Source: Minisyncoccota bacterium
GTDB taxonomy: Bacteria; Patescibacteriota; Minisyncoccia; Phycocordibacterales; SBAW01
Direction: 5' to 3'
Length of the DNA stretch: 64,000 nucleotides
NCBI GenBank assembly: GCA_035546615.1
Contig: DASZWM010000007.1
Location: forward strand, 1 to 64,000
Shown here: in pieces, positions 9,001 to 63,195 of the stretch
Numbering within the stretch: the stretch's first letter is position 1
Layout of the letters: the number at the start of each line of letters is the position of its first letter
Position numbers and translations under genes: made by a program
Notes under the pieces: model-generated
Seen by the model: only the letters and a program-made list of their open reading frames with translations
Told to the model about the DNA's origin: nothing
Databases searched by the model: none

Positions 9001-10629
9001 CGATGTTACCGAGCCGCCGCCCGAGCCGCCCAGGCCCAGAGTCGAGGTTGAGGTTACAGCCCACTTCACGCCGTCCCACACCAGCACGTCGCCGAACGCG
9101 CCGCCGCCGATGTGCGGCACCGTTGAGGAAGCGGAGATGTACGCGCCGACAGCATAGTTGCTGGAAGTGGTGGAGAAGAAGTCGCGAGCCGTCTTCCAGT
9201 AGTCGGCGGAGGTGGTGGAAAATCCGCTAAGGCTCTGAAGCGAGAGGAAGTATGCCGCTGAGGTTGTAGAAAATGCCTGGCCCTGATTTTGGCTGAGGAA
9301 GTACGCGGCGGAGCTGGTCGAGAAGAAGTAGCCCTTGCCGATGGAGTCGAGATACGCCTGCGCGTTCTGCGGCGTGAAGTACAGGTTGGTGGCGCCTTCG
9401 TCGAGGCCGTCGGTCGTGGTCGCGTACCACGCGGAGAGCGACAGCTTCGAGTCAAGCGCGTTCTGGAGATCGGTTTGGTTGGAAAGCGTGCCGACGATAT
9501 TGCCCCACGACGGATTGCCGCCCGCGGCGATGCCGAGCGTCGAGGTGGAAACCAGGTCGTAGCCGCCCATGGAATTGCCGAGAAGGAGCTGGCCGTAGGT
9601 CGGGGCAGTGGAAGTGCCGGTGCCGCCGTTTATCGCATTGAGCACGCCGGAGAGCGTGAACGTGCCGGTCGACGTGATAGGCCCGCCGAGGAAGGAGAGG
9701 CCGGTCGTGCCGCCGCTTGCGTCAACCGACGTTACCGAGCCGTTCCCGCCGCCCGAATTGCCGCCGCCGTTGTGGCTGTGCGAAGGGTTCGGCGAAAGCG
9801 CCGCGGCCTCTATTTTCGGGAGAAGGAAATTCTGCAGCGCGAGCAGGCGGAGGTTGAGTATGTCTTCGGTGACGCCGGAACCCTGCACCAGACGCTCGGT
9901 AACCGGATAGGTGTTGTAGACCGGGTACGAGTTCTGGACGATCGTCGTGGTCGCGGTGCCTGCGGCGACCGGAGCAGACGGGCCGTACGCCGGCGAGGTC
10001 TGCGTGCCCGCCGCATACTGCGCGGGAACGCGCGGGCCGAAGAGGAACGAAAATACCTGCGAGAAGACATCGGACGCGACAGACGGCGATGACTTCGCCG
10101 GAAGGGAGAATCCGAACTGGAGCGGATGCGCCCCGAAGAACGGCGACTCCACCTGCGCGAGCGACGCCGCAAGCGTGGTCTGGTTCTGCATCGCGACCTC
10201 GCGCTGGTGCATCGCGCCGGCGTACGCTACGGCGCCGAAGAGCAGCATGCCCCCCAGCGCCATCACCGCGTTGCGCGCCAGAAGCGAAGAGAAGCGCGAG
10301 GCGACGCCGTTCGCGGAAGGAACGGCGTCGGCCTCAACCGCCTTCTTCGCAGGCAGGCCGTTTGCCTTGCGGTACGTCTCGTTCTCAAGCTTGCGCTCCT
10401 TCGCTAACGCAGACGCGCGCTCAAGCTTTGCCTGAGCGCGCGCCGCCTCGAATTCTCCAAGGGACTTCTCCTCGACGAACCATGCGCCGTTTATCTGCGA
10501 GCCGCGCAGCTTGCCGTCGCGCAAAAGGCGGCCGACATAGTCCTGAGCGCAGTTCATCCGCTTGGCGGCAGAACGGGCCGAGAGCATCGGTTCGCCTGAA
10601 TTTGAGATGATTTGTTTAGCGGGTGACAT
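1..10629 (-). CDS. Giant repetitive cell-surface protein, 3' partial (at least 3543 aa in window; stop lies beyond window start). N-terminal HTH_17-like domain, coiled segment, single TM helix, then Gly/Ser/Thr-rich repeats, FSTTSA-type 16-aa tandem repeats and a 7-blade LVIVD beta-propeller. Alternative start ATG 10587.
   Basis: Revcomp of 1-60 gives ...GIGTNVPAEALQAARTSGITAISTIN, revcomp of 4981-5040 gives ...SFGGLAGFGTTSPSQKLTVAGG, and the ATG at 10629 is in frame with the codon ending at nt 1 (10629 = 3 x 3543). No listed ORF on either strand in 1-10600 carries the FSTTSA repeats, so the true frame is uninterrupted and lacks an in-window stop. All listed ORFs here are Ser/Thr/Pro/Arg-rich alternative-frame artefacts. 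Confidence 0.8.
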   Translation of the reverse strand, partial: MSPAKQIISNSGEPMLSARSAAKRMNCAQDYVGRLLRDGKLRGSQINGAWFVEEKSLGEFEAARAQAKLERASALAKERKLENETYRKANGLPAKKAVEADAVPSANGVASRFSSLLARNAVMALGGMLLFGAVAYAGAMHQREVAMQNQTTLAASLAQVESPFFGAHPLQFGFSLPAKSSPSVASDVFSQVFSFLFGPRVPAQYAAGTQTSPAYGPSAPVAAGTATTTIVQNSYPVYNTYPVTERLVQGSGVTEDILNLRLLALQNFLLPKIEAAALSPNPSHSHNGGGNSGGGNGSVTSVDASGGTTGLSFLGGPITSTGTFTLSGVLNAINGGTGTSTAPTYGQLLLGNSMGGYDLVSTSTLGIAAGGNPSWGNIVGTLSNQTDLQNALDSKLSLSAWYATTTDGLDEGATNLYFTPQNAQAYLDSIGKGYFFSTSSAAYFLSQNQGQAFSTTSAAYFLSLQSLSGFSTTSADYWKTARDFFSTTSSNYAVGAYISASSTVPHIGGGAFGDVLVWDGVKWAVTSTSTLGLGGSGGGSVTSVAANGGTTGLSFTGGPITSSGTLVLGGTLGVANGGTGTTTAPAYGQVLVGNATGGYDLVSTSSLGIMFGGTSTGFSTTSAEYWKSVSNFFSTTSTDYWKTQNNFFSTTSVAYFLAQNQGNAFSTTSAAYFLSQNQGNAFSTTSAEYWKSVSNFFSTTSASYFAAANGLLSTSSLSALAPLSYDGNTGVFSIAQANGSTNGYLSSSDWTLFNGKLGTTSISGSYPVQYNQTTGQFSLAFGTTTANAWSQLQQFNAASTSKLSVYQSASFGATATSTFSSTGALTLGGGLTLGSITGTTQCLRVNAAGVVSGTGSDCGTGGGGGSTTFLGLTDAPDTYVAGQIFFTNQAEDAVVGDNTFTFDGTTLNAPGAVFTTLTVLGSSNVGTVSTGVWHGSIVADAYVADNLTISNGTINSTPIGATTPSTAKFTNATSSSFFATSTRVLTSSTTLATIDSLYVSNLTGPLQAINGLVSATTSIGVVYGGTGLTLAPAYGQVLLGNSAGGYDLAPTSSLGFLTPASLSALAPLAYNSSTGIFTISQSGGSTDGYLSSTDWNSFNSRLSTSTLGLFDKGYFFSTTSAAYFLSQNQGNAFSTTSALYFLANNQNLAFSTTSADYWKTQNNFFSTTSAMWFVTSSTTIPKTYTANTFTNSNTFNGGVTISNLTGPLQAINGVVSATSSVGVLYGGTGLTAAPSYGNILVGNGTGGYALSATNTLGLLGSTSLSAGTGISYVPATGVISNTGVLSLSQTGGGTAQTGALTLSTSTLTQNGQTLGIRITNTGGAFTFAPTLSGTLDNAGLTNSTISGKQLGTSLSALSHNATLAGSSYDGSAGISDWGLNLSNSNTWAALQQFGAGLTAYSSSTISALTVTFGTTTNATSTSLYSAILGLNSEYFTDLTGSGLLNVGGALTLDRAGDWTGTLDGQEGSYYLANSFSTTSADYWKTQNNFFSTTSASYFLSVNQGQAFSTTSALYFLSQQTLVGFSTSSADYWKTQNNFFSTTSAIHFVDASSTIPKTYSSNTFTNSNTFNGGVTISNITGPLQAINGAVSATSTLSVIYGGTGLSTPPSYGNLLVGNSNGTYTLTSTSSLGLVTTGSLNATAPLFYNPSSGTFSIQDAKADGSTKGAASFASSDFNDNGAGLISIDYAGAQKANASQPGFLTNTDWSVFNNKISSTSLSGQSVISYTSSTGVITTQAGTFGGNSSSVYTFPGDVITSGTSTTTNLYINGRITGANLSSCSGSVDKLLWNSATGQFQCGTDAGASGSDVNWTHFNGSGIRLTTATDQVLIGFTSTSTLSKLEVVGGATIDNATTTGFYNSGIASFGGLAGFGTTSPSQKLTVAGGNILQVASGTPTLATSTLVGGTSYGINTSGHYSYVAAGNVRILDITQPGNPKLVGSYTGTTQAQSIVVSGKYAYVGDASAGLVIIDVSNPAVPTLVSTLSGAGHPISLALSGRYLYAPNLDTGMVNIVDIANPAAPVIVGQYSSPGTPIGSGSSVAVQGKYLYVGSIYNGSVTSVDISNPASPTAVYSYTGLSVPATLYASGRYLYVADASGGLYVLDISNPASISLAGSKTGTGYYTVEAAGDYAYVTDTSGNLVVLDVHNLASITSVGTFATGGNPRGLSLSGKYAYVTSNSSTVKVVDINGAKLPAANIGSLEVGVANIADNLNVGGDIYAQGGINVGISGIFSRGGLAVLGTTTLTDFVGRYSTTTTATTTGLAILGVRSALLTTNAQGSVVATSSLGVMYGGTGLSAAPSYGNILVGNSTGGYSLTATNTLGLLGSTSISATGPLSYNVSTGVFSISQSGGSTDGYLSSTDWNTFNSRLSTSTLALFDKGYFFSTTSANYWASTGGAFSTTSQDYYANAFRDWKIVGSGATAFLTPSSTVQSIGVFGSSTIGNGAAGGGLTVNGTATTTNLRVTSLTAGRVPFIGAGSQITDDSDFAFDSTNNTLTLNSVGANPTIYNQTSGNGVILKGDNVVGGGGQLRVVYNSGGWTGGGATATSTTYFQITNASNNNATFMGGTYGADTQLNRLQFNASSTQITDLNWTNTTVPISLFGLINSSAAKKVFTVQGASAQTADLAQFLNNAGTVLTRIDASGNFTTQQATTTNLAITSLLNTLLSTNANGSVISTTVSSPLSFSGNTLSIQQANGAQNGYLSSTDWTTFNNKISSTSLSATGPLSYNPSTGVFTISQSGASTDGYLSSSDWNSFNSRLSTTTLGLFDKGYFFSTTSALYFLAQNQGQAFSTTSAAYFLSVNQGNAFSTTSQNYYANTFRDWKIVAGALTPTTTLGIQVNASSTIGNGTLGLTVNGPATTTGRAYFSGNVGIGTSNPLAALQVSGGYGYFTSGITLNRDAHVTTNVDGSSDAGIYTPGGLNDLYLAVGSSNNVIAPAGNFGIGTTSPYSKLSVVGQVVAANYIATTSAQNVLPNLLSTNATTTSFGINNETFTDLTGSGLSNVGGVLTLDRTGDWTGTFDGQEGSYYLANSFSTTSAVYFLSQNQGNAFSTTSATYFLSLFDKGYFFSTTSADYWKTQNNFFSTTSASYFSSQGLAFSTTSENYYANAFRDWKIVNGALVPTTTLGIIVNASSTIGNGTLGLTVNGSATTTGNAYIAGNVGIGTQSPSARLDIQASYTTTGFPLSVKNPGYYNAYFQGTSASNQASFYLENDRGSFASYGGFLYGGSSSSLGSLFGAPRADRLFMFADGASNLGYYVGTLTAQPFVIGTNNIERARVDGNGNLGIGTTSPFARLSVGGNTYLGGSLTATGTVQLSNYANGALGVTSNGTLYTFSTSTWTFASSTLLADNNTFSGTNRFNGNTTLTNATSSSIYTSILGLNSEYFSDLTGSGLTNVGGALTLDRTGDWTGTLDGNEGSFYLANSFSTTSANYWQSQNNFFSTTSANYWASQGLAFSTTSENYYANAFRDWKIVAGALTPTTTIGIQVNASSTIGNGTQAGGLTIYGGATTTGNAYIAGNVGIGTNVPAEALQAARTSGITAISTIN

Positions 10630-10966
10630 GTTGCCGAAAAAACTTTTGTTTGTGCGGAGAGTTCGGGTATTTCGTGTTTCAACAGAAGAGGTAGCGACCC
10701 GCCGATGTGCCGCTACCCTGTTACTAATTATTTTACGCGAGTGTCGCGCTTTTTCCGTCTATAATATGCGAAGAAAAATGTGGATATCTTATTGCACTGC
10801 AACGGAATTTTGAAAATTTATTTTCAAAAAATAATCAGCTTAAAATGAGTTTGCTGTTTAAAATTCCATGAAAAAATATTCGGCTTACATACCCTTTTCT
10901 CGTCTTAAAAATTGTATAGGAGAGATATGTTGTAATCAAAAGCTACATCGGCTCTCCCATACGATA

Positions 10967-13501: not shown

Positions 13502-15601
13502 TTACTGCCCCAGCAGATAGAGCTGCCTGACCTCCGCAGCCGGGAGCGCGCGGTTGTAGACGCGCACATCGTCGAGCTTGCCGTTGAAGGTATACATAGC
13601 CCCGCTTCCGTTTCCCATGCTGCCGATATATGTATTAAAAGAAGCGGGCGTACCGGGATCGGTGGTCTGCGCGGAGGAAGCATCGAGGGAGCCGTTGATG
13701 TATATTTTCTTTGTCGCCCCGTCGTAGGTAAAGACGACATGCGTCCATGTAGAAGTCGCTATCGTAGCGGCGGATACGATCTGGCTCAGCGAACTGTTCC
13801 AAATGCCTCCCGAGACCTTTCCTGCTTGTATGTACATATCTATGCCTTTGTACGTGCCGCAGCAGTCCCGGGCGTTGCTGTACACGTAGTTGTATAGATA
13901 GGTCTGAGGAGTATTGTCGTATATCCATGCGGAAATAGTAAATCGGCTCGGGGTCAGCGAATTGCTGCTGCCCACATTTATTCCGCCGGTATTCATCCCG
14001 CTAAAACTGAACCCCTGTCCCATCCTGCCTATCGTCTTGCGGCTCGAAGTGGCGTTGTTGGTACCGACTAAGTATCCATTAAAACCACTCCCCGAACGGT
14101 CGTACACCTTGTCGGTTACGTCCGGCCCGTCGAAGGTCCAGAGGCCGACCAGCCCGCTTGAGAGGCTGCTGTCGGAAGACAAGTCGGGTGAAGGCGTATT
14201 TATCTGTGCGGTACCCTGCCTATATAAGGCCGCTATTTCCGCCGCCGAGAGCGCGCGGTCGTAGATGCGCACATCGTCCATGAGGCCGCCGAAGAACGAG
14301 GCGGAAGGATTGATATTGGCGTCCTTGCCGATAAAGAGGACGCTCGGTGCTGTGAGCGACTGGGTCCCCCCGGTACCCGTGTTGTCAAGAACCCCGTTCA
14401 CGTACACTGTCATGGCGCCGGTCGATTTGACGCGGGTCGCGGTTACGAGCACCCAATTGCCTGTGTTAACATCGGCATTCGAGAATACGGTCGTATCAGA
14501 GTTACCGACGCCGAAAGCAAGTTTGCCGTTATAAACCGTCATGCCGAAGTCGTTCGTTACGCCCCCGACTTCGCCGTCTACTATCCCCTGCCCGCAGTAC
14601 CATTGCCCTGCGCAGCCCGCGGTATTCTGCGTCGTCTTTATCCATGCGGAGAGCGTGAAGTCGTCCGATACGGTGCGATTGACGGGTATATAGCTGGTGC
14701 TCCCGTCGAACAAGAGCGCCTTGCCGTGCTTTCCGCTTGCCCAGGCCGGAAGCGTCGAGCCGGAGAGCGTCCCGTCGTTGCTATTGCCGCTTGAGTCCCC
14801 CGCAATAGTACCCGTACCCTCGTTGAAGTCCCACGAGCCGACGAGGCCGACGTTGTTAGGCGCGCGCACCTGCGCCGCCCCGCCCCTGTACAGAGCGACG
14901 ATTTCCGCATCCGACAACGCGCGATTGTAGAAACGGAAATCATCAATCGTCCCGACGGTAGGCTCGCCGCCCGAATACTTTCCCAATATCCAGGAAGACT
15001 TCGCAATGCTGGTGGTGTCTGTCTGGGCGCTTCCCAGTGACGCGCCATTCACAAAAACGGACACATTCGAGCCGCTTCTCTTTGCAACAATGTTGTACCA
15101 AACGCCTGCCGCGGGGGTAAACGGCCAGCTGAGCGTATGAGGCCCGGAAGGCGTTCCCCGTATGTATAGCATCACCACATGCGCCGTATTATCGAACTCG
15201 ATCAATACTCCGGCGGTTCCCGCATATCCGCCGTCAAATGTCGTCTGGTAGCGCGCGGGGAAGCCGTCGAACCTGATCCAATGAGAAATAGTAAAATCTC
15301 CCGTTCCTATCTGGAATGCGTCGCTGACCGGGATGCTTACGTAATTGTCGCTGTTCGTGAATGAAAGGCCCTTGCTGAACCTGCCCGTAACCCATGTTGG
15401 CAGCGTGGTGCCCGAGAGCGTGCCTATGTGGCCGTTCCCGCTCAAATCGCCCAGCTTAGTTCCCGAGGCGTCGTTGAAGCTCCAGTACGCTATGAGCCCT
15501 AAATTATTCGCGGGTTTGGCAAGCGCGGCGGCCTGCGCGGCGGCGGGCAGAAAAAATGCCGCGAATATGAAACATATCGCGATGCCGGGAAATACCCTCA
15601 T
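13502..15601 (-). CDS. Secreted protein with signal peptide and three tandem LamG-like (concanavalin A-like lectin/glucanase, Laminin_G_3) domains
   Basis: Signal peptide MRVFPGIAICFIFAAFFLPAAAQAAA. Three repeats begin with LxxxWxFxxxxGxxxxDxSGxGxxGTL and end with IDDFRFYNRALSDAEIVALY / MDDVRIYDRALSAAEIAALY / LDDVRVYNRALPAAEVRQLY. Confidence 0.7.
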   Translation of the reverse strand: MRVFPGIAICFIFAAFFLPAAAQAAALAKPANNLGLIAYWSFNDASGTKLGDLSGNGHIGTLSGTTLPTWVTGRFSKGLSFTNSDNYVSIPVSDAFQIGTGDFTISHWIRFDGFPARYQTTFDGGYAGTAGVLIEFDNTAHVVMLYIRGTPSGPHTLSWPFTPAAGVWYNIVAKRSGSNVSVFVNGASLGSAQTDTTSIAKSSWILGKYSGGEPTVGTIDDFRFYNRALSDAEIVALYRGGAAQVRAPNNVGLVGSWDFNEGTGTIAGDSSGNSNDGTLSGSTLPAWASGKHGKALLFDGSTSYIPVNRTVSDDFTLSAWIKTTQNTAGCAGQWYCGQGIVDGEVGGVTNDFGMTVYNGKLAFGVGNSDTTVFSNADVNTGNWVLVTATRVKSTGAMTVYVNGVLDNTGTGGTQSLTAPSVLFIGKDANINPSASFFGGLMDDVRIYDRALSAAEIAALYRQGTAQINTPSPDLSSDSSLSSGLVGLWTFDGPDVTDKVYDRSGSGFNGYLVGTNNATSSRKTIGRMGQGFSFSGMNTGGINVGSSNSLTPSRFTISAWIYDNTPQTYLYNYVYSNARDCCGTYKGIDMYIQAGKVSGGIWNSSLSQIVSAATIATSTWTHVVFTYDGATKKIYINGSLDASSAQTTDPGTPASFNTYIGSMGNGSGAMYTFNGKLDDVRVYNRALPAAEVRQLYLLGQ

Positions 15602-51925: not shown

Positions 51926-53038
51926 ATGCTATATGCTTGCAGTATGGATAACCGCGCTCCGTTGATATACGTTTCCCCCTATTACGACCCCAAGGTGCCT
52001 TCGGGAGCTAACCGCCGGTTCGACGAGATATGCCGGCGATACAGCCGCGACTACGGCGACCGCTTTACGCTCATTGTCGCCAAAGGAAAGGTCCCCCTAT
52101 GGTGGAACGGCAAGAACCTGGTCGAAGTCGACTACAAGTTCGACCACCCCAGCAAATTCACCGCGGCGCGGCAGATAGCGAAAGTGCTCGACGCCTTGCC
52201 CCCGTCCATCGTCGTTATCGAGTCGGTCCCGGTCCCCTACCGCGCGCTCAGGCGCCACATGCAGGTCCAGGTAGTGTACGATTTCCGCTACTTCACCGGC
52301 GACAGCAAAAGCTTCCTCTACCGCCTCATATTTACGCCGTACCTTAAGTGGCAATGGGGCCGCTCGCAATTCCTCCTTACCTGCAGCGACTTTTCGGTGG
52401 CTGAAGCGCGCAAGTACCTGCGCTACGACCCGGCCCGCGTCATAAAGAGCTACTTCGGCATCGACGAGAAAGTGCTCGACCTGGCGAACACGCCCGCGCC
52501 CGCCAAGGACGTCGACATCATATACGTCGCCCATTTCGAGAAGCGCAAGAATCACGAGCCGCTCATCCGCGCTATCGCGCGGCTTAATAAGGATTTGCGC
52601 GTGGTATTTAACGGCCGCGACAACGGCATGCAGGCGGAGCTCGAAGCCTTGTGCCGCGAGCTCGGGCTTACGAACGTTACCTTCAGCGGGGGCAAGTCTG
52701 ACGCGGAGCTGTGGAACATGTATCGCAGGAGCCGCGTCTTCGCCTACCCTTCTTTGTACGAAGGCTTCGGCATCCCGCTTATCGAGGGTCTGGCGCTCGG
52801 CGTGCCGGTAGCCGTCGCGGACACGGAAGTGTTCCATGAGGTCGGTAGCGATCTGGTATCGTATTTCGACGGCCGCGACCCAGAGGATATTGCCCGCGTA
52901 CTTAAAGGAATTCTGGATAACCCGCAGGTGCCGTCTCCCGAGAAGGTCCGCGCGCACTTGGAAAAATTCTTCTGGGAGAATATCTACAAAAAGATGGTGG
53001 AGGATACGGAGGCCGAGGCCGGGCCGCTTTTGCGCTAA
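51926..53038 (+). CDS. Glycosyltransferase family 4
   Basis: FEKRKNHEPLIRA ... YPSLYEGFGIPLIEGLALGVPVAVAD. Confidence 0.8.
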   Translation: MLYACSMDNRAPLIYVSPYYDPKVPSGANRRFDEICRRYSRDYGDRFTLIVAKGKVPLWWNGKNLVEVDYKFDHPSKFTAARQIAKVLDALPPSIVVIESVPVPYRALRRHMQVQVVYDFRYFTGDSKSFLYRLIFTPYLKWQWGRSQFLLTCSDFSVAEARKYLRYDPARVIKSYFGIDEKVLDLANTPAPAKDVDIIYVAHFEKRKNHEPLIRAIARLNKDLRVVFNGRDNGMQAELEALCRELGLTNVTFSGGKSDAELWNMYRRSRVFAYPSLYEGFGIPLIEGLALGVPVAVADTEVFHEVGSDLVSYFDGRDPEDIARVLKGILDNPQVPSPEKVRAHLEKFFWENIYKKMVEDTEAEAGPLLR

Positions 53039-53748
53039 GGCACTATCTCGAATTCGTCGCCGGGCTGCGGCTTTTGCGGCGTGAGCGCGCGCTTTTGCAT
53101 GCGGGCCCACAGCGCTCCGGCGGTACCCAGCGCCATGACAGCCGCCGCGCCCGCGCCCCACACCAGCAGGGGCGGAAGCTGCGCCGATCCGGCCGCGGCC
53201 GCAAGCTCTTCCGGTTCGGTATAGGAAAGCTCGCCCGGATTCGCTGCAGAACCGGCCGCTGGCGTCTTCGCTTTTGCGGTGGAAGTTTTTGAAGCGGCCG
53301 GCTTTTTTGCGGCAGGCGCGGGCTTCGGCTTGGGTGCTGCGGTATACGACATGGAGTACTCAGTTTTCCCGGAGGCATTCACAAGGGCGAGCGTCTCCCC
53401 TTCGTTTGAAAGCGAGAACGAGCTCTTGAATACGCTGCGGGTCTCCCCGGGATGCTCGCTCAAGTAGGTCGTCGGATCTTCCGCGATTACCGCCGACGCC
53501 CCGGGCGAGAGCGTGGCGCTTCCGGCAGCCGCGGTCAGCTTGTGATTGACGCCTCCTTCGAGGAACTTGTATTTTGAAATATCGACGCTGTCCTTCCCTT
53601 TGTTGGCTATCTCGACCCACTCGCGCCCGTCGTCGCTGCCCGGCAGGTCGTACTCGACATGCGTGATTTCAACGGCCGCAAAGGCGCTCGCAGGGAGCGC
53701 TAGAAATGCGAATAGAAGAAAAAGGCGGAGGCTAGTGTTTGCGCGCAT
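53035..53748 (-). CDS. Lamin-tail-domain (LTD) surface protein: signal peptide, LTD, Ala/Pro/Lys-rich linker, C-terminal TM anchor
   Basis: MRANTSLRLFLLFAFLALPASAFA; VEITHVEYDLPGSDDGREWVEIANKG...GETLALVNASG (LTD); C-term LPPLLVWGAGAAAVMALGTAGALWA. Confidence 0.7.
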   Translation of the reverse strand: MRANTSLRLFLLFAFLALPASAFAAVEITHVEYDLPGSDDGREWVEIANKGKDSVDISKYKFLEGGVNHKLTAAAGSATLSPGASAVIAEDPTTYLSEHPGETRSVFKSSFSLSNEGETLALVNASGKTEYSMSYTAAPKPKPAPAAKKPAASKTSTAKAKTPAAGSAANPGELSYTEPEELAAAAGSAQLPPLLVWGAGAAAVMALGTAGALWARMQKRALTPQKPQPGDEFEIVP

Positions 53749-55663
53749 CGGGGTCGTCTGACCCGTAGTCGGCGTCCGGCGCGAGGTCGGGGTCGACGGA
53801 AAGCATAGACCGCAACACGTCTTCTGGCAACCCGGCCGGCTCCTGCGCGGGCGTCGCCTGCGGTTTTGGCTTCGGAAGCTCTTCTGCGGCGGCGGGAGCC
53901 ACCTTCTTGAGAGCGTCTTTAAGAGCCGTACCGTATCCCTGGTCCTGGCGCGGCGGGGGTGCCGGAGGAGCGTCCGCCTTTCGCGCTACCACCTCGGCAA
54001 GCGCTTCCCGCAGGCTCTTGGCGCCGCTTAAAGGCGGGGTTTCAGGGACGGGCGGCGGAGTGGGGCGCGGGCGTTCAGCTCGCCTTTCGGGCTCGCGGCG
54101 AGGCTCGGGCGCCTTTGGCCGGGGCGGGCGGGGCGCTTCTTCGACGCGGGCCGCGGGTTCCGGAGCGGGAGCGGGCCTTTCAGCCGGCGGCGCAGGGCGT
54201 TCGGGAGCGCGCTCAGGAGCCGCTATCTCCACAAAAACGGGCGTTGGGGCCGGAGGCTGAGGTTTTGGCTCTGCCCTGGGCGCCGCCGGAGCAGGGCGCG
54301 GACGGGGCGCTGAAGATGCGGCAGGCTTGCGGTCCGGAACGAACTTCGGCTTCTGAAGCGGCTCCATTGGGTCCTCCTCGTGCCACTTGCGAATCGTTTC
54401 CTCGACTTCCGCGCGCGGCCGGCTGAACACCCGGCGGGAATTCTCGATGACCTGGTCGACGTACTTCTGGGGCGGCGGGTCAAACGGCGGCAGGGTCGTG
54501 GCGGAGAAGGGCGTCGAGCCTACGCCGTCTATCATGAGCGTCAGGTATATCTGCGCGAAGCCAAGGTTTACGAGGTCGGTCGCCTCGAACTGCGGGCTGA
54601 ACACGGTCTCGAGCACCTCGGCGTCGAACGGCCCCACGCGGAAGGTCACGGTCGTGCCTACGTTGCCGAACACGGCGTCCCGCACCTCCTCCTCCATCTG
54701 TTCTATATATTGGTGCGCGATGATGAGGTTCAGCTTATATTTGCGGGCCTCCGAGAGGATATCGGCGAAGGATTGGTTGGAAAAGCTCTGGAATTCGTCC
54801 ACGTAAAAGTAGAACTGCGGCAGGGTCGCCAGCACGTCGGCAGAAACATCGGCGCGCGACATCGCCGCCAGGTATATCTTCGTGACCAGCATGGAGCCGA
54901 GCAGCGTCGCGTTTACTTCCCCCACGCGGCCCTTGGAGAGGTTGATAATGAGTATCTTCTTGTCGTCCATCGCCTGCCGGAAGTCGAACGACGACTTCGC
55001 CTGCCCGACGATATTGCGAATGAGCGGGTTGCTGGTGAATTGCCCTATCTTGTTCTGAATAGCCGGTGTGGCCTCCTGCGTGTAGCGGTCGCTGTAGGCG
55101 GCGAACTCGTCCGCCCAGAAACTCTTCACGATTGGGTCGGTCACGTTGTCCACTACCTTCGCGCGGAACTTCTTGTTGACGAGCATCCGGTTGACGTCCA
55201 GGAGCGTCGAGCCCTCGTACTCCAGGAGGGCCAACAGGGTATTGGCGAGGATGTACTCCATGCGGGCGCTCCACGCGTCCACCCATATCTTGCGGAAGGC
55301 TGAGAGCAGCCCGGACACCACGAGATGCCGCTTGTCGTAGCCCACGTCCTCCATAACGTTGAAGGCGATGGGGTGCTCCATGTCGAACGGCGCGAAGTAC
55401 ACCACGTCCTTGATGCGGTGCTCGGGCACGTACTCCATGATGCGGTCGGCCGTGCCGCCGTGCGGGTCGATAAAGGCCATCCCCTCGCCGTTGCGGATAT
55501 CCTGTATCGCCATGTTCTCCAGCAGGGTCGATTTGCCCATACCGGTCTTGCCGATGATGTACATGTGGCGCACGCGGTCGCGGCGCTTTATCCCGAAAGC
55601 CTGGTCCTTGCCGCGGGAGTTCGTCTGGGCGAAATAGGTTATCTTCTGATCGTCGTCAGCCAT
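53732..55663 (-). CDS. FtsK/HerA/TraG-VirD4 superfamily P-loop ATPase (type IV coupling protein-like) with about 220-aa Pro/Ala/Arg/Glu-rich disordered C-terminal tail. Probable start MADDDQK at 55663; track start 55687
   Basis: HMYIIGKTGMGKSTLLENMAIQDIRNGEGMAFIDPHG (Walker A plus the DPKGE-like motif of TraG/VirD4), FYVDEFQSF (Walker B), KYKLNLIIAHQYIEQM (GIRLxLIxQS-like). No N-terminal TM. Confidence 0.6.
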   Translation of the reverse strand: MADDDQKITYFAQTNSRGKDQAFGIKRRDRVRHMYIIGKTGMGKSTLLENMAIQDIRNGEGMAFIDPHGGTADRIMEYVPEHRIKDVVYFAPFDMEHPIAFNVMEDVGYDKRHLVVSGLLSAFRKIWVDAWSARMEYILANTLLALLEYEGSTLLDVNRMLVNKKFRAKVVDNVTDPIVKSFWADEFAAYSDRYTQEATPAIQNKIGQFTSNPLIRNIVGQAKSSFDFRQAMDDKKILIINLSKGRVGEVNATLLGSMLVTKIYLAAMSRADVSADVLATLPQFYFYVDEFQSFSNQSFADILSEARKYKLNLIIAHQYIEQMEEEVRDAVFGNVGTTVTFRVGPFDAEVLETVFSPQFEATDLVNLGFAQIYLTLMIDGVGSTPFSATTLPPFDPPPQKYVDQVIENSRRVFSRPRAEVEETIRKWHEEDPMEPLQKPKFVPDRKPAASSAPRPRPAPAAPRAEPKPQPPAPTPVFVEIAAPERAPERPAPPAERPAPAPEPAARVEEAPRPPRPKAPEPRREPERRAERPRPTPPPVPETPPLSGAKSLREALAEVVARKADAPPAPPPRQDQGYGTALKDALKKVAPAAAEELPKPKPQATPAQEPAGLPEDVLRSMLSVDPDLAPDADYGSDDPDARKH

Positions 55664-55676
55664 TGGATAAAGTATA

Positions 55677-56714
55677 TCACTTGGCAAGTTCGAAAGAGCC
55701 CGTCGTGAGTATCGACTCCGATATATCCGCCGGCAGGTCGGGCGCTATAAGGTCCGCTAGCACCGCTTTTGTAGTCGTTGCATTCGCAATCGAAGCTTCT
55801 TTGAATGTATTCACGCCTGTAAGGCTGAAACGGATTTTATCGCTTGAGAACTCTATGCCGACGGCCAGCCCTCGCCGCACTTCGGGCTTCCACCCCTGAT
55901 CGAAGATAAAGTTGCCGAGCGAGTAAAATATTGCCTTGTTTTTGTAGATCTCCACAGGCTCCACGATATGCGGATGCGCGCCGATAACGACATCGACTCC
56001 CGCATCTATGAACATATGCGCCGCATTGCGCTGCGCCTGCGTGGGCTCATGCTGGTATTCTTCGCCCCAGTGCGCTACAAGCACTATGTGCGAACATTCC
56101 GGACGAATTCGCGCTATTTCCTCAAGCATCGAGGAGGGGTTCGGATCGTACAACTGATGAAAGCCGACCAGGCATAGTGTCTTGCCGTTTACCTGAAGTG
56201 CGGCCGAAATATTCTCGTTGTTAAGCGGCGACCCAAAGAAAGAAATTCCCTGCCCGCTCAGATATTGAGTAGTCTGCGCATAGCCGGACTTTCCGAAGTC
56301 AAGCGCGTGGTTATTCGCCAGGGAAACCGCATCGAATCCGGCGTCCTTCAGCACAGCCGCGTACTTCGGGTCGAACGTGAAGCGCAAAACAGTCGAGCTT
56401 GCCTGCGATAGGGAAGGGTTTGTCGTAATAGAACCTTCTAAATTCCCCACTCGCAGATCGTAGCCCTGAAACAATTCTCGAACGCCTGCAAAGAGCGCCT
56501 CGTCCCCCGCGGCTCGCGCATGCGTCGCCACCGTTCGGTCGAGCATGATGTCCCCCACGAAAAGAGCAGTGAAAGAAGGCTCGGGCAGCGATATATACGC
56601 AGTGCGGACTATCTGTACAAGCGCGTCATGCAGCCGCTCGGGCCATAACACAGCGGCGGCGCCTAATATGACGAGTACCGTCAAAAAGCATCGGAGAAGC
56701 CATGCATTCTTCAT
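55677..56714 (-). CDS. CapA/PGA_cap family metallophosphatase (poly-gamma-glutamate capsule biosynthesis protein CapA-like)
   Basis: N-terminal TM, FVGDIMLDR ... GNLEGSIT ... ANNHALDFG ... VAHWGEEY ... GAHPHIVEPVE. Confidence 0.8.
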   Translation of the reverse strand: MKNAWLLRCFLTVLVILGAAAVLWPERLHDALVQIVRTAYISLPEPSFTALFVGDIMLDRTVATHARAAGDEALFAGVRELFQGYDLRVGNLEGSITTNPSLSQASSTVLRFTFDPKYAAVLKDAGFDAVSLANNHALDFGKSGYAQTTQYLSGQGISFFGSPLNNENISAALQVNGKTLCLVGFHQLYDPNPSSMLEEIARIRPECSHIVLVAHWGEEYQHEPTQAQRNAAHMFIDAGVDVVIGAHPHIVEPVEIYKNKAIFYSLGNFIFDQGWKPEVRRGLAVGIEFSSDKIRFSLTGVNTFKEASIANATTTKAVLADLIAPDLPADISESILTTGSFELAK

Positions 56715-57865
56715 TATTGATACTGAATGTATATCGGCGCGGGCGTCAGCTCAAGCACCTGCGGCGGGGTCAGCATCGTCGTGCCGTCCAACACGTCGTT
56801 CTTGTAGAACAGCTTGAAGCCGGTGAATTGCACGGGCTCGGGAGCGATAACGTTGTTATATGTTCCCTGCTTCTTGGCCTGCCCGCCCCAGCCGTCCATA
56901 TCCACCACCACCTGCACTTCGGGTGTGGGCTTGATGCGCTGGTAGCCCGTGAGCATATCGTGCGTGAAGCGGTGGATAACCAGGATTTTCGGCGGCAGGT
57001 CATATTGCCGTACCAGCGCGGAGAGATACTGTATCGCCCAGTTGATGTCGTCAGCATCAAGCGAACCGATAACTTTGCCTGGCGGCGTGCCGTTGTGCAT
57101 TGCGAACTCGGGGTCCAGTCCCAGGTGCACGTTCGGGAGCTTCCAGAAATTCTCCAGCATCGGCACCTCCGTCTGCACGTCGGACAACGCCACCTGAATA
57201 TCGAGGAATACGACGCCGTCCACTTCCTTCGCGAGCGCGAGGGCCTGCTCCACTTGGCTGTCGGGCATGCGCGTACGGTATTTGCCGTCCTTGCCCGCGC
57301 TCCCCTGCGCCACGACCGCGATGTAGTGGATAGCGGGGATGACCGGCGTCGACGGGTCCGCAGTGCGCCACTGCGCCGCGGCGTTCTTCAGGCGGGTAAC
57401 CATCTCCTCCGGCGGATACTGGCCGAGCACCCCCATGCCCTTTGCGTAAAAATTGCCGTAGTACGCGACGATGCGGTTGAACGGCAGGAGCGCGCGGCTG
57501 TCGCGCGGATATGCGGCCGAGACGGGCCAGGGCTTTTTAGCCACATGCACCGAAGTGGTTGCGTTCGGAAGCGTTACGGTTGTCGTGCCCTGAAGGAACG
57601 CCGCGTACCACGGGCTCGAAGTCGCAACATGCGCGAGCGCGAGCAGCTTCAAGTTGTACGCGGTTGTATCAAGCGGCGGCGGAGGCGGCGGGCCCTTGGG
57701 TACGGCAGCCTGGGTCGAAGTCGCAGCGGTGCGCGAGTAGGACACCGACATAAGCTCCGGAAGCGCGCCGTATGCCAAGACGAAAGCGGCGCCCGCGACA
57801 AGTGCGGCCGCGCCGATCATGACGAATGCGTTCTTAGTTGAGGGAGTTGATGCCTTCTTGGTCAT
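56714..57865 (-). CDS. Membrane-anchored hypothetical protein (N-terminal TM, Pro-rich linker, about 300-aa extracytoplasmic domain, possibly glycosyl-hydrolase-like). Start MTKKAST at 57865; the track 58081 start is an Arg/Ser-rich over-extension
   Basis: VMIGAAALVAGAAFVLAYG TM; PPPPPP linker; 1-nt TAATG overlap with capA. Confidence 0.5.
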   Translation of the reverse strand: MTKKASTPSTKNAFVMIGAAALVAGAAFVLAYGALPELMSVSYSRTAATSTQAAVPKGPPPPPPLDTTAYNLKLLALAHVATSSPWYAAFLQGTTTVTLPNATTSVHVAKKPWPVSAAYPRDSRALLPFNRIVAYYGNFYAKGMGVLGQYPPEEMVTRLKNAAAQWRTADPSTPVIPAIHYIAVVAQGSAGKDGKYRTRMPDSQVEQALALAKEVDGVVFLDIQVALSDVQTEVPMLENFWKLPNVHLGLDPEFAMHNGTPPGKVIGSLDADDINWAIQYLSALVRQYDLPPKILVIHRFTHDMLTGYQRIKPTPEVQVVVDMDGWGGQAKKQGTYNNVIAPEPVQFTGFKLFYKNDVLDGTTMLTPPQVLELTPAPIYIQYQ

Positions 57866-58109
57866 AGCGTCTGTCCTGCGGGTGCCAAGGCATCTCGCGC
57901 TCCTCCTCCGGCATATTCTCGACGAACGGATGGTGGACCGAGCGCTTGCCGCTGCGGGCAAGGGACTCTGCGCGCAGCACGAATCCGAGCAGGGCGATCG
58001 CGAGGCCGGAAAAAATGAGAATGGTCGTGCGCCATGAGCCGGGGATGCCGAGGTATGGCACCGCCAGTATCCAGACGCCAAGGGCTATGACCGTCATCTC
58101 TTTGGACAT
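57834..58109 (-). CDS. Small membrane protein (91 aa, 2 TM)
   Basis: MTVIALGVWILAVPYLGIPGSWRTTILIFSGLAIALLGFVL; overlaps start of downstream gene by 32 nt. Confidence 0.4.
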   Translation of the reverse strand: MSKEMTVIALGVWILAVPYLGIPGSWRTTILIFSGLAIALLGFVLRAESLARSGKRSVHHPFVENMPEEEREMPWHPQDRRYDQEGINSLN

Positions 58110-58134
58110 GACCCGAGTGTATCACACGAGGCGT

Positions 58135-58190
58135 CACCCTGTTAACTCGCCGCCTTGCGGCGACTGTGCGGAGCACAGAGTTAACAGGGT
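58135..58190. repeat. 56-nt compound stem-loop: 13-bp perfect IR accctgttaactc / gagttaacagggt enclosing inner hairpin tcgccgc-cttg-cggcga
   Basis: Read from sequence between rsmI stop (58199) and small-membrane-protein start (58109). Confidence 0.4.
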
Positions 58191-58198
58191 TTCGGTCG

Positions 58199-58900
58199 CT
58201 ACGCTCCCTCCACTATCACTACGAATTCGCCGCGCTGTTTCTGCGGATCGCCCATAAGGCGGGCCCGGACTTCGCTGGCCGAGCCGATTATGGACTCTTC
58301 ATACATCTTGGTGAGCTCGCGAAAGATGCCGACGCGGCGCGCAGGCGGCAGGACCTTATTCAGCGCCTCAAGCGCCTTCATAATGCGATGCGGGGATTCG
58401 TAAAAAACGCTCGCGCGCTTGCTCTCGGCAATTTCCTTAAACAAAGTCTCGCGACCTTTCTTGAGAGGCAAGAAACCGTAGAAGGTGAATGACGCTGCGC
58501 GCAGGCCTGCGATAGAAAGTGCGGCGGCCAGCGCCGAAGCGCCCGGTATCGCTTCTATTGTGATATCCGCAATGCGCTCGCGAACAACCGAGACAAGTTC
58601 CAGCCCCGGATCTGACACGCCCGGCGTGCCGGCGTCGGAAACGAGCACGAGATGCTTGCCCTCCTCAAGCAGCTGGATTATTTTCTCAAATCCCTTGGCG
58701 CCGCTATTTGCGTGGAAGGCAACGGTAGGCGTATGAATGTCGTAGTGGCTGAGAAGCTTCTTCGTAACACGCGTATCCTCGCAGGCAATAACGTCCGCTT
58801 CCTTGAATACCTCAAGAGCCCGCAAGGTGATGTCCTTCAGGTTCCCGATAGGCGTGGCGACGACCGAAAGCTTTTGCATAACGTCTGTACCGTACCACAA
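58199..58900 (-). CDS. rsmI: 16S rRNA (cytidine1402-2'-O)-methyltransferase RsmI
   Basis: SVVATPIGNLKDITLRALEVFKEADVIACEDTRVTKKLL ... LVSDAGTPGVSDPG. Confidence 0.85.
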   Translation of the reverse strand: MWYGTDVMQKLSVVATPIGNLKDITLRALEVFKEADVIACEDTRVTKKLLSHYDIHTPTVAFHANSGAKGFEKIIQLLEEGKHLVLVSDAGTPGVSDPGLELVSVVRERIADITIEAIPGASALAAALSIAGLRAASFTFYGFLPLKKGRETLFKEIAESKRASVFYESPHRIMKALEALNKVLPPARRVGIFRELTKMYEESIIGSASEVRARLMGDPQKQRGEFVVIVEGA

Positions 58901-62451: not shown

Positions 62452-62457
62452 ACTATT

Positions 62458-62543
62458 GGTGCCCAGGAGAGGACTTGAACCTCCATTCCCTTGCGGGAAC
62501 TACGACCTGAACGTAGCGCGTCTACCAATTTCGCCACCTGGGC
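62458..62543 (-). tRNA. tRNA-Leu(CAG), class II with long variable arm, CCA encoded
   Basis: Minus-strand cloverleaf folded by hand: acceptor GCCCAGG/CCTGGGC; D arm GCG-AAATTGGTAGA-CGC; anticodon stem CTACG/CGTAG with loop TTCAGGT; variable arm TCCC-GCAA-GGGA; T arm GGAGG-TTCAAGT-CCTCT; discriminator A + CCA. Confidence 0.85.
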
Positions 62544-63195
62544 ATGACCTGATTATACGCAAGGAATTCCTGATCTTGAGGTACTTCCTGCGCAAGTGAG
62601 GCAGTGGTGTAGTGTAATACATGCCCTGTGCGAGCACAATCGCTTCTTTCTTCGCGTACCTCAGTTGTACGTACGACTTGCCCGTATACCCTCCGACCGA
62701 ACCACGTATACGCAACAGTCGCGTTATCTTTGCGCGGAACCAATCGACGAAGATCGGGCTTGCCGAGGTAAATGATATGTAAAACCGATAACTGTTCTTA
62801 AAGACAGGATCGTAATAGGAATAACTGCATCCGTCCCCGTCGAAGTATCCTCGCGCAAAGTCCATAAAGTACACATCGGGCACCGCTACTGATTCAAGCG
62901 TTTTCGACTTTGCCGGCGTCAGGCCTATGCCCAGAAGGAACCGATACAAAAGCACATCGCCGAATTGGGTACAATACGCCATATCGCCGCTGCCCGAGTA
63001 CTTTTTCGCGGTCTTTGTCTTGATACCCAGGCATTTTTTAAAAAGAGAGATCTGTGCCTTGTCGGTCGAGGTCAGGCTGATATGCCGGCCGTCTTTTGAT
63101 AAGCAGCCGTCGGCGGTTAGCAAGCCTACCGCATATGCAAAATCTGAAGACCATCTGCGTTTTGCTTTGCCTACCGGCTTAGGACCCCTTTTCAT
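62500..63195 (-). CDS. LAGLIDADG-family homing endonuclease (two-motif, single-chain), lower-GC. Its 3' 44 nt overlap the 5' half of tRNA-Leu
   Basis: Motifs LLTADGCLS and YFDGDGCSY; C-terminal residues CPGGEIGRRATFRS are encoded by tRNA nucleotides. Confidence 0.75.
   Translation of the reverse strand: MKRGPKPVGKAKRRWSSDFAYAVGLLTADGCLSKDGRHISLTSTDKAQISLFKKCLGIKTKTAKKYSGSGDMAYCTQFGDVLLYRFLLGIGLTPAKSKTLESVAVPDVYFMDFARGYFDGDGCSYSYYDPVFKNSYRFYISFTSASPIFVDWFRAKITRLLRIRGSVGGYTGKSYVQLRYAKKEAIVLAQGMYYTTPLPHLRRKYLKIRNSLRIIRSCPGGEIGRRATFRS

Follow-up and report, generated by a model that had tools for sequence, protein, structure and literature searches.

A short coupling-protein-like ATPase and its membrane partners in a conserved gene module of Paceibacteria

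The stretch of DNA analyzed here, the first 64,000 nucleotides (nt) of contig DASZWM010000007.1 from a Minisyncoccota bacterium (assembly GCA_035546615.1) and referred to below as the window, carries five closely packed minus-strand genes at 53035–58109. They encode a small protein with two transmembrane (TM) segments, a TM-anchored protein (gene 1), a CapA protein, a VirD4/TrwB-type ATPase, and a protein with a lamin-tail domain (LTD). Comparison of sequences and gene order across the class Paceibacteria (Parcubacteria) shows that the conserved core is a three-part module comprised of the small two-TM protein, the TM-less ATPase, and the LTD protein or a related putative receptor. Judged from the same comparison, gene 1 and CapA are passengers in a variable slot of envelope enzymes and dispensable for the module. 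An earlier sequence-only reading had placed gene 1, CapA, the ATPase, and the LTD protein in a four-gene operon that could form one export or surface-attachment machine. The tight packing was borne out, the small upstream gene had been overlooked, and synteny speaks largely against the single machine. What the module does is a more tentative matter. We favor, at a level short of probable, an exapted soluble coupling-protein ATPase that is docked to two membrane partners and probably moves DNA.

The ATPase and its two conserved partners

Profile searches place the ATPase among type IV coupling proteins (T4CPs), as the sequence-only reading had proposed. Pfam TrwB_AAD_bind matched amino acids (aa) 35–351 (E = 8.9e-11, 41.7 bits against a cut-off of 20.5), TraG-D_C scored 25.0 bits against a cut-off of 22, and Walker A (GKTGMGKS) and Walker B (YVDEF) motifs are present. 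In PDB sequence searches TrwB was the best match and the only ATPase returned, and a profile search of PDB sequences again yielded TrwB only, with significance confined to the P-loop region. The motifs IDPHGG and RKYKLNLIIAHQ align to TrwB VDPNGD and RKAGLRVVAGLQ. FtsK_SpoIIIE was not among the Pfam matches at E up to 0.01, no FtsK chain appeared in the PDB sequence searches at E up to 10, and the window ATPase has an N-terminal motor and no gamma domain. NCBIfam matches (TraD, CD1115, CedD) were all sub-threshold; that to CedD, over the P-loop region, was weak (E = 3.7e-5) and far below its cut-off. Together these matches support assignment to the VirD4/TrwB/TraD type of P-loop protein, not to FtsK. 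For a hexameric ring with an all-alpha domain, only the profile alignment speaks, together with a helical stretch at aa 103–233 in a poor AlphaFold2 (AF2) model of the core built from a shallow 30-sequence alignment (83–93% identity; predicted local distance difference test, pLDDT, 45.4). The earlier reading had named a robustly FtsK-like ATPase in an unconserved gene order as the outcome that would count against it, and this combination was not what we found.

The absence of N-terminal TM segments also stands: not one hydrophobic segment occurs along the protein (19-aa hydropathy reaches at most 1.37), and its start codon is the same in a public protein record that is 100% identical. The low-complexity tail, previously put at about 220 aa, measures 213 aa and is 63% P/A/E/R against 25% in the core. 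Across loci its length ranges from 98 to 381 aa. Three amphipathic islets within it form near-invariant alignment columns, and a C-terminal PExxLRxxL motif occurs in most of the complete tails listed, although a few lack it (e.g., L036, L055). Within 53801–54016 three similar amphipathic motifs (SLREALAEV, ALKDALKKV, VLRSMLSV) are separated by proline-rich spacers; these repeats may be docking or membrane-binding helices.

Conservation was assessed in 80 species-representative Paceibacteria loci (Adler-, Nomura-, Kaiser-, Taylor-, Zambryskibacteria, and others). Open reading frames (ORFs) in these loci are our own simple calls, whose agreement with independent gene calls was checked in two loci only. 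Labels reading “uncultured Candidatus Saccharibacteria” among the 80 are probably placeholders because the gene order matches that of Paceibacteria loci. The ATPase was found in all 80 loci at 72–87% identity. It outranked RsmI in 57 of 57 loci (median identities 75% vs 62%) and MurC in 33 of 33 (MurC median 48%). A gene more conserved than its peptidoglycan and rRNA-modification neighbors must do something central. Over 8,000 database proteins match the ATPase, the best 120 of which share at least 83% identity with it across 430 aa, and an exhaustive search gave 5,926 clusters (50% identity level) at E up to 1e-30.

The small upstream protein has TM segments predicted from hydropathy at aa 5–23 and 29–47, with some 5 aa of loop between them, and a cytoplasmic tail with a conserved PFVEN. 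No Pfam or NCBIfam family matched it. Homologues were found by tblastn in 42 of the 80 loci; a more sensitive analysis recovered a homologous two-TM ORF 5′ of the ATPase in about 60 of the roughly 70 loci with enough upstream sequence, with the consensus MSKEM..LG.P.SWRT...GFLLRGE...PFVEN. In at least 24 loci the gene directly abuts the ATPase gene (within ~110 nt), and it remains with the ATPase in five loci without RsmI (L009, L039, L043, L058, L063). We regard this protein as a conserved upstream partner and a candidate membrane anchor of the ATPase. At 57834–57865 of the window the frame for its C-terminus (..EGINSLN) overlaps the frame for the N-terminus of gene 1. An ending of the form ..EGI(G/T/N)SLN is seen again in other loci, and in several of these gene 1 comes next (L005, L006, L014, L016, L036).

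On the other side of the ATPase, Pfam identified the LTD of the third core protein with E = 3.8e-14 (53.4 bits against a cut-off of 34.3). The domain follows a signal peptide (aa 1–24) and precedes a K/P/A-rich linker, a TM helix, and a cytoplasmic tail of 24 aa that ends in DEFEIV. The earlier description of a secreted protein needs correction: since a C-terminal TM helix is present beside the signal peptide, the protein is membrane-anchored, not simply secreted. Homologues were detected by tblastn in 32 of the 80 loci. If a gene is called receptor-type when its product has both a signal peptide and a TM helix near the C-terminus, one lies 3′ of the ATPase in 54 of the 73 loci in which the ATPase gene is complete at its 3′ end. 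In 34 loci it overlaps the stop codon of the ATPase, and in 18 it begins within 25 nt (52 of the 54 together), so that the proposed link between the ATPase and the LTD protein proved to be conserved. Loci without such a gene have glycosyltransferase or epimerase genes in that position. These features show the LTD protein, as predicted from sequence, to be a type-I membrane receptor that is translationally coupled to the ATPase.

Pfam detected LTD in 44, PKD in 36, and HHH_3 in 11 of 74 downstream proteins. Scans of individual proteins showed an architecture of signal peptide, first module (LTD, HHH_3, or a module without assignment), usually PKD, a second Ig-like region, and TM helix. The ComEA-type helix-hairpin-helix (HhH) domain HHH_3 (E down to 8.8e-23) takes the exact position of the LTD in about 10–11 loci (L006, L014, L016, L064, and others), and receptors of both kinds are orthologous outside the first module (32–41% identity, E = 3e-35 and 1e-52). 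N-termini resembling ComEA (xNINTA) are seen in close (at least 78%) and distant (below 78%) ATPase-identity groups alike. The window receptor itself has no HHH_3, only an LTD, by Pfam. A highly expressed Ig-like/PKD protein reported elsewhere (PMC10936435) might be an orthologue of this receptor. In bacteria, LTDs are repeatedly found together with extracellular nucleases and with hydrolases of the ComEC and calcineurin types (PMC6085458).

In the window’s clade the cytoplasmic tail of the receptor ends in an acidic-aromatic motif (DEFEIV, EEFDIE, DEFEIE, and similar). We scanned every ORF of at least 80 aa in six frames for the pattern [DE][DE][FYW][DETK][ILV] after a TM helix. All 25 occurrences in ~1 Mb of loci were in the gene right after the ATPase, and the single occurrence in the window was in the LTD protein. 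The motif is present in 25 of 30 receptors at ATPase identity of 78% or more, and in 7 of 24 below 78%.

More distant relatives of the ATPase differ in architecture and setting. Many of those at 45–55% identity are long forms, in which an N-terminal TM anchor and a DUF8128 of ~330 aa precede the ATPase, and the window ATPase begins exactly where DUF8128 ends. A tblastn search with the long-form extension detected no DUF8128 in the window or the 80 loci. The small protein was considered as a split-off T4CP TM domain, and this is not shown: the long-form TM anchor precedes DUF8128, and the tblastn with the extension was empty. Berkelbacteria-like genomes carry two long paralogues, of ~840 aa and 1,030–1,180 aa, flanking a Sigma70_r4/HARE-HTH gene; in L083–L085 giant proteins and DUF5663 are encoded upstream of them. 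The surroundings of these three pairs contain no LTD, ComEA, or com genes, so the long-form neighborhoods lend no independent support to DNA uptake. Relatives from outside the phylum are soluble, at 28–38% identity, on Sulfitobacter and Bacillus plasmids with uninformative contexts. One is a 395-aa soluble protein (38% identity, E = 1e-81) on Sulfitobacter plasmid NZ_CP081110 (L086, 8001–9188), adjoining a recombinase and transposases. Another is a DUF87 ATPase on B. subtilis plasmid CP025942 (L087, 5530–7620), of a kind found on hundreds of mostly non-mobilizable Bacillus plasmids. Nothing specific on LTD or DUF8128 in Patescibacteria came out of the literature searches.

The variable slot and the gene neighborhood

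Between the small protein and the ATPase lies a slot whose contents change from locus to locus. In the window it holds gene 1 and CapA. Gene 1 encodes an extracytoplasmic protein with an N-terminal TM segment (aa 13–31, from hydropathy) and a predicted TIM barrel that resembles glycoside hydrolases, Cwp19 being the best structural match; it matched no Pfam or NCBIfam family and no DUF4015 profile. CapA was identified by Pfam PGA_cap over aa 51–273 (E = 1.9e-62, 211.5 bits against a cut-off of 27) and has an N-terminal TM anchor (aa 5–23) and the metallophosphatase motifs GD, GNLE, NNH, HWG, and GAHPH. None of the scanned neighbors of CapA is a CapB, CapC, or poly-gamma-glutamate gene, and the nearby genes with a Mur-ligase fold are MurC and MurD, which have N-terminal domains of their own.

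Homologues of gene 1 were detected by tblastn in 12 of the 80 loci and CapA in 2. CapA adjoins the ATPase only in L005 and L011, at species level, and in the metagenomic relatives L081 and L082, and the gene 1–CapA pair is also seen in the closest relatives (L005, L081, L082). L081 and L082, with ATPases 90–93% identical, have the order RsmI, small protein, gene 1, CapA and then an extra gene before the ATPase, a YkuD/Peptidase_S11 protein in L081 and a 187-aa protein without assignment in L082. Elsewhere the slot contains gene-1 homologues, DUF4015 proteins, YkuD + Peptidase_S11 fusions, small ORFs of no assigned function, or nothing. DUF4015 “putative glycosyl hydrolase” proteins occupy it in ~18 loci (E ~1e-72 to 1e-85), and it is empty in at least 24. 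Because its contents vary between loci, we interpret the slot as a cassette of exported envelope enzymes, not a fixed machine part.

The four genes of the sequence-only reading were all recovered as ORFs where it had placed them (Table 1), and the three junctions it described are exact: gene 1 and CapA overlap by 1 nt at TAATG, a 13-nt gap separates CapA from the ATPase, and the receptor start lies over the ATPase stop in a 17-nt overlap. Read from the sequence in the same way, the small two-TM gene overlaps gene 1 by 32 nt. A promoter consensus scan of the region gave five sites vs 1.9 expected, and the site at 58116–58145, a pattern match only, is a possible start of a five-gene transcription unit. 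Terminator-like sites in the scan were fewer than expected by chance. At 53035–53038 the stop of the LTD gene overlaps that of a convergent GT4 glycosyltransferase gene (plus strand, 51926–53038), so there is no intergenic room for a terminator there.

Table 1 Positions of the module genes, their motifs and domains, and associated features. Coordinates are those of the window, except in the last three lines, which refer to the named loci.
Feature	Position	Strand	Details
Small two-TM protein gene	57834–58109	minus	91 aa; ORF list
PFVEN in small-protein tail	57915–57929		aa 61–65
Gene 1	56714–57865	minus	383 aa from ATG
CapA gene	55677–56714	minus	345 aa
ATPase gene	53732–55663	minus	643 aa from ATG
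ATPase core	54374–55663	minus	aa 1–430; soluble VirD4/TrwB/TraD-type nucleotide-binding domain with helical insert
Walker A	55529–55552		aa 38–45
Walker B	54791–54805		aa 287–291
ATPase tail	53732–54373	minus	aa 431–643; P/A/E/R-rich low-complexity linker with three amphipathic islets
Tail islet 1	54016–53990		SLREALAEV
Tail islet 2	53926–53894		ALKDALKKVAP
Tail islet 3	53830–53801		LPEDVLRSML
LTD protein (receptor) gene	53035–53748	minus	237 aa
LTD	53344–53691		aa 20–135
Receptor TM helix	53110–53178		aa 191–213
Receptor tail motif DEFEIV	53041–53058		aa 231–236
Promoter-like site	58116–58145	minus	TTAACA-18-TACACT with TG; inside the 89-nt gap between rsmI and the small two-TM gene; consensus scan
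rsmI	58199–58900		89-nt gap to small two-TM gene
Long-form paralogue pair, L083	3636–11423		next to SecDF
Long-form paralogue pair, L084	3658–11087		next to SecDF
Long-form paralogue pair, L085	3373–11543		next to SecDF

MurD, MurC, and a PgeF-like gene lie upstream of the five genes and a 30-kb glycan cluster lies downstream. RsmI and MurC were matched by tblastn in 57 and 50 of the 80 loci, respectively. Pfam scans of ~33 window ORFs found no VirB4, VirB6, relaxase, pilus, ComEC, or CapB/C family, in agreement with the earlier statement that this is no recognized type IV secretion system (T4SS), capsule, or pilus operon. The surface-glycan cluster (~23000–53000) includes a Wzy_C + TPR protein, at least two UDP-glucose dehydrogenase-like genes, a Wzt/ABC-2 exporter pair, GT2, GT4, and GT11 glycosyltransferases, and several epimerases; in many related loci glycan genes come directly after the ATPase–receptor pair. 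Farther away, a single stop-free minus-strand frame of at least 3,586 codons (1–10758) runs off the window start, coincident with strong GC skew (+0.15 to +0.21) over 1–10000, and is probably the gene of a giant surface protein. Between Obg and GatB, at 13502–15601, a gene encodes 699 aa in which three stretches match Laminin_G_3 (concanavalin-like lectin; E = 3.3e-74); its product is likely another surface or adhesion protein. A LAGLIDADG_3-domain ORF (62500–63195, minus strand) overlaps the 5′ part of tRNA-Leu(CAG) at 62457–62543.

Possible roles of the module

We hypothesize that two cytoplasmic tails, that of the small protein with PFVEN and that of the receptor with DEFEIV, tether the ATPase ring to the membrane, perhaps with help from the terminal helix of the ATPase itself. 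The small protein would substitute for the coupling-protein TM domain that the ATPase lacks. The receptor would catch extracellular DNA, and the ATPase would drive movement of nucleic acid across or at the membrane at the expense of ATP. A module of this kind would be a DNA uptake or transfer unit that fills the roles of ComEA (receptor) and ComFA (motor), possibly feeding ComEC or a distant VirB4 system, with slot enzymes that may remodel the wall locally or merely share an envelope-gene neighborhood. Ring ATPases of this superfamily (TrwB, FtsK, HerA) move nucleic acids, which together with the replacement of the LTD by a ComEA-type domain suggests that the module probably handles DNA at the membrane. 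The com components recognized across the candidate phyla radiation (CPR) comprise ComEC, DprA, and ComFC; ComEA and ComFA are not listed (PMC10633639), so a receptor-plus-motor role would fill a gap. A bolder version would make the module the missing receptor and motor of patescibacterial DNA uptake, with a tail-tethered coupling-protein ATPase that switched from export to import and brings in environmental or host DNA; we consider this unlikely as it stands.

Several observations weigh against DNA handling. LTD and PKD are also typical adhesin modules, an HhH domain is present in only ~10 of the 54 receptors, and docking through the tail cannot be universal given a motif in only 7 of 24 distant-clade receptors. 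Peptidoglycan and glycan neighbors (MurD, MurC, PgeF-like, glycosyltransferases) are at least equally consistent with a role in the envelope or in division, and neither the scanned ORFs of the window nor the annotated relatives L081 and L082 yielded a ComEC, DprA, VirB4, or relaxase. DNA binding by the LTD is putative, and the LTD of ExeM is dispensable for DNA degradation in vivo (PMC6085458). The T4CP homologue of Saccharibacteria is reported to be non-essential (PMC12102498), which is odd beside such extreme conservation.

The family assignment invites a different explanation, that the ATPase is a genuine but remotely encoded coupling protein of an MPF-FATA-like VirB4 T4SS near oriC, delivering protein or DNA to a host cell or taking it from one. 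The receptor and wall hydrolase would then be an accessory adhesin and peptidoglycan hydrolase, as in Gram-positive conjugation. It is what the annotation suggests by default, but we rate it as somewhat unlikely. Pfam does put the ATPase in T4CP families, T4SSs of monoderms depend on surface adhesins and a peptidoglycan hydrolase, and the slot holds hydrolase-like proteins, but the ATPase has no TM domain by which coupling proteins dock to the channel. Conjugative coupling proteins also diverge quickly, unlike an ATPase that is more conserved than MurC and RsmI. A published survey cuts both ways: t4cp genes are often far from virB4 and Paceibacteria virB4 loci lie near dnaA/dnaN, but only 148 of 5,713 VirD4-type homologues, from 2,918 Patescibacteria genomes, are near virB4, the phylum has hardly any relaxases (109 homologues), and in Saccharibacteria the T4CP homologue is dispensable whereas the T4SS genes are essential (PMC12102498). 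The same survey counts 2,474 virB4 genes against the 2,918 genomes with a T4CP homologue, totals and not genome-level counts, which hints that some genomes have a T4CP homologue without virB4. Its authors note that exaptation of patescibacterial T4CP homologues cannot be excluded (PMC12102498).

The conserved place beside MurD, MurC, PgeF, and RsmI, the peptidoglycan enzymes in the slot (DUF4015, YkuD + Peptidase_S11, the Cwp19-like TIM barrel), and the housekeeping-level conservation would all suit a DNA translocase or envelope ATPase of the division and cell-wall machinery, FtsK-like with reversed domain order and anchored by the small TM protein, for which the receptor and slot enzymes would be wall-remodeling partners. 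The proline-rich linker also recalls that of FtsK. With no FtsK_SpoIIIE Pfam match, no FtsK in the PDB searches, and no gamma domain, we find this decidedly improbable; FtsK proper is generally annotated in CPR genomes, and a ComEA-type ectodomain has no obvious division role. Least credible, and in our view very improbable, is the single minimal export or surface-attachment machine of TM protein, CapA, ATPase, and LTD protein. Tight packing and overlaps in the window genome and the gene 1–CapA pair in its closest relatives speak for such a machine, but the tblastn counts and empty slots described above, and the other enzymes that substitute for, or insert beside, CapA and gene 1, speak against it. 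CapA, gene 1, and the LTD protein each have their own N-terminal signal or anchor, so a dedicated exporter is probably unneeded. An anti-phage defense role was rejected because PADLOC gave only superfamily-level ATPase matches (mad8, 2.1e-13; HerA); the other four proteins of the unit had no PADLOC match. The probability left after these readings falls to something else.

Significance and relation to known systems

Paceibacteria are among the most abundant uncultured bacteria, cannot make nucleotides, and have much conserved gene content without an assigned function. With its partners defined, its passengers set apart, and a ComEA-type ectodomain recognized, the role of this module is now experimentally approachable. 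DNA import, if true, would serve a need of nucleotide-auxotrophic ultrasmall bacteria, represent a new way to build a DNA uptake machine, and show a conjugation component reused as a housekeeping device. The ATPase family is already annotated, and the position of T4CPs away from T4SS genes in Patescibacteria is published (PMC12102498). Within our limited full-text searches, the short Paceibacteria subfamily that lacks TM segments, and the degree to which it is conserved, appear to be new, as do the small-TM and LTD/HhH-receptor partners, the gene-specific tail motif, the terminal helix, and the recognition of CapA and gene 1 as slot passengers.

Among the slot proteins, gene 1 has a predicted TIM barrel with Cwp19 as its best structural match; DUF4015 (GHL10) proteins fill the same slot in other loci, although gene 1 has no DUF4015 match. 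CapA is a clear PGA_cap member; unlike in a CapBCA operon, no CapB/C or poly-gamma-glutamate gene lies alongside. FtsK/SpoIIIE share with the ATPase the ASCE ring-ATPase superfamily, a proline-rich linker, and, as proposed for the ATPase, membrane association, but have their own TM segments, a gamma domain, the opposite domain order, and the FtsK_SpoIIIE profile.

ComEA with ComFA/ComEC of monoderms would have a similar working principle, as proposed here, and is alike in its genes: an anchored extracellular HhH receptor, in ~10 orthologues, is encoded with a cytoplasmic ATPase. Here most receptors have an LTD and ComEC is not adjacent, and ComFA is a DEAD-box protein whereas the module ATPase belongs to the T4CP/FtsK-HerA superfamily. 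The likeness to H. pylori ComB and archaeal Ced is conceptual, a conjugation-type ATPase with small membrane proteins for DNA import, although no VirB4, VirB6, or CedA homologues were found here.

The closest comparison is with T4CPs themselves (TrwB of R388, VirD4, TraD/TraG), which have the same P-loop core with Walker A/B, DPxG and RKxxLxLxxxxQ motifs, a helical insert between Walker A and B, and, in F TraD, a C-terminal extension. Unlike them, the window ATPase has no N-terminal TM domain (two helices) and no T4SS or relaxase neighbors; it is a chromosomal core gene held at 72–87% identity across a bacterial class, has a low-complexity tail (98–381 aa across loci) with a conserved terminal helix, and keeps fixed small two-TM and LTD/HhH-receptor partners. 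The orphan T4CPs of Patescibacteria (PMC12102498) share its core at 45–55% identity and its position away from virB4, and the long forms among them are set apart by an N-terminal TM anchor, DUF8128, and different neighbors.

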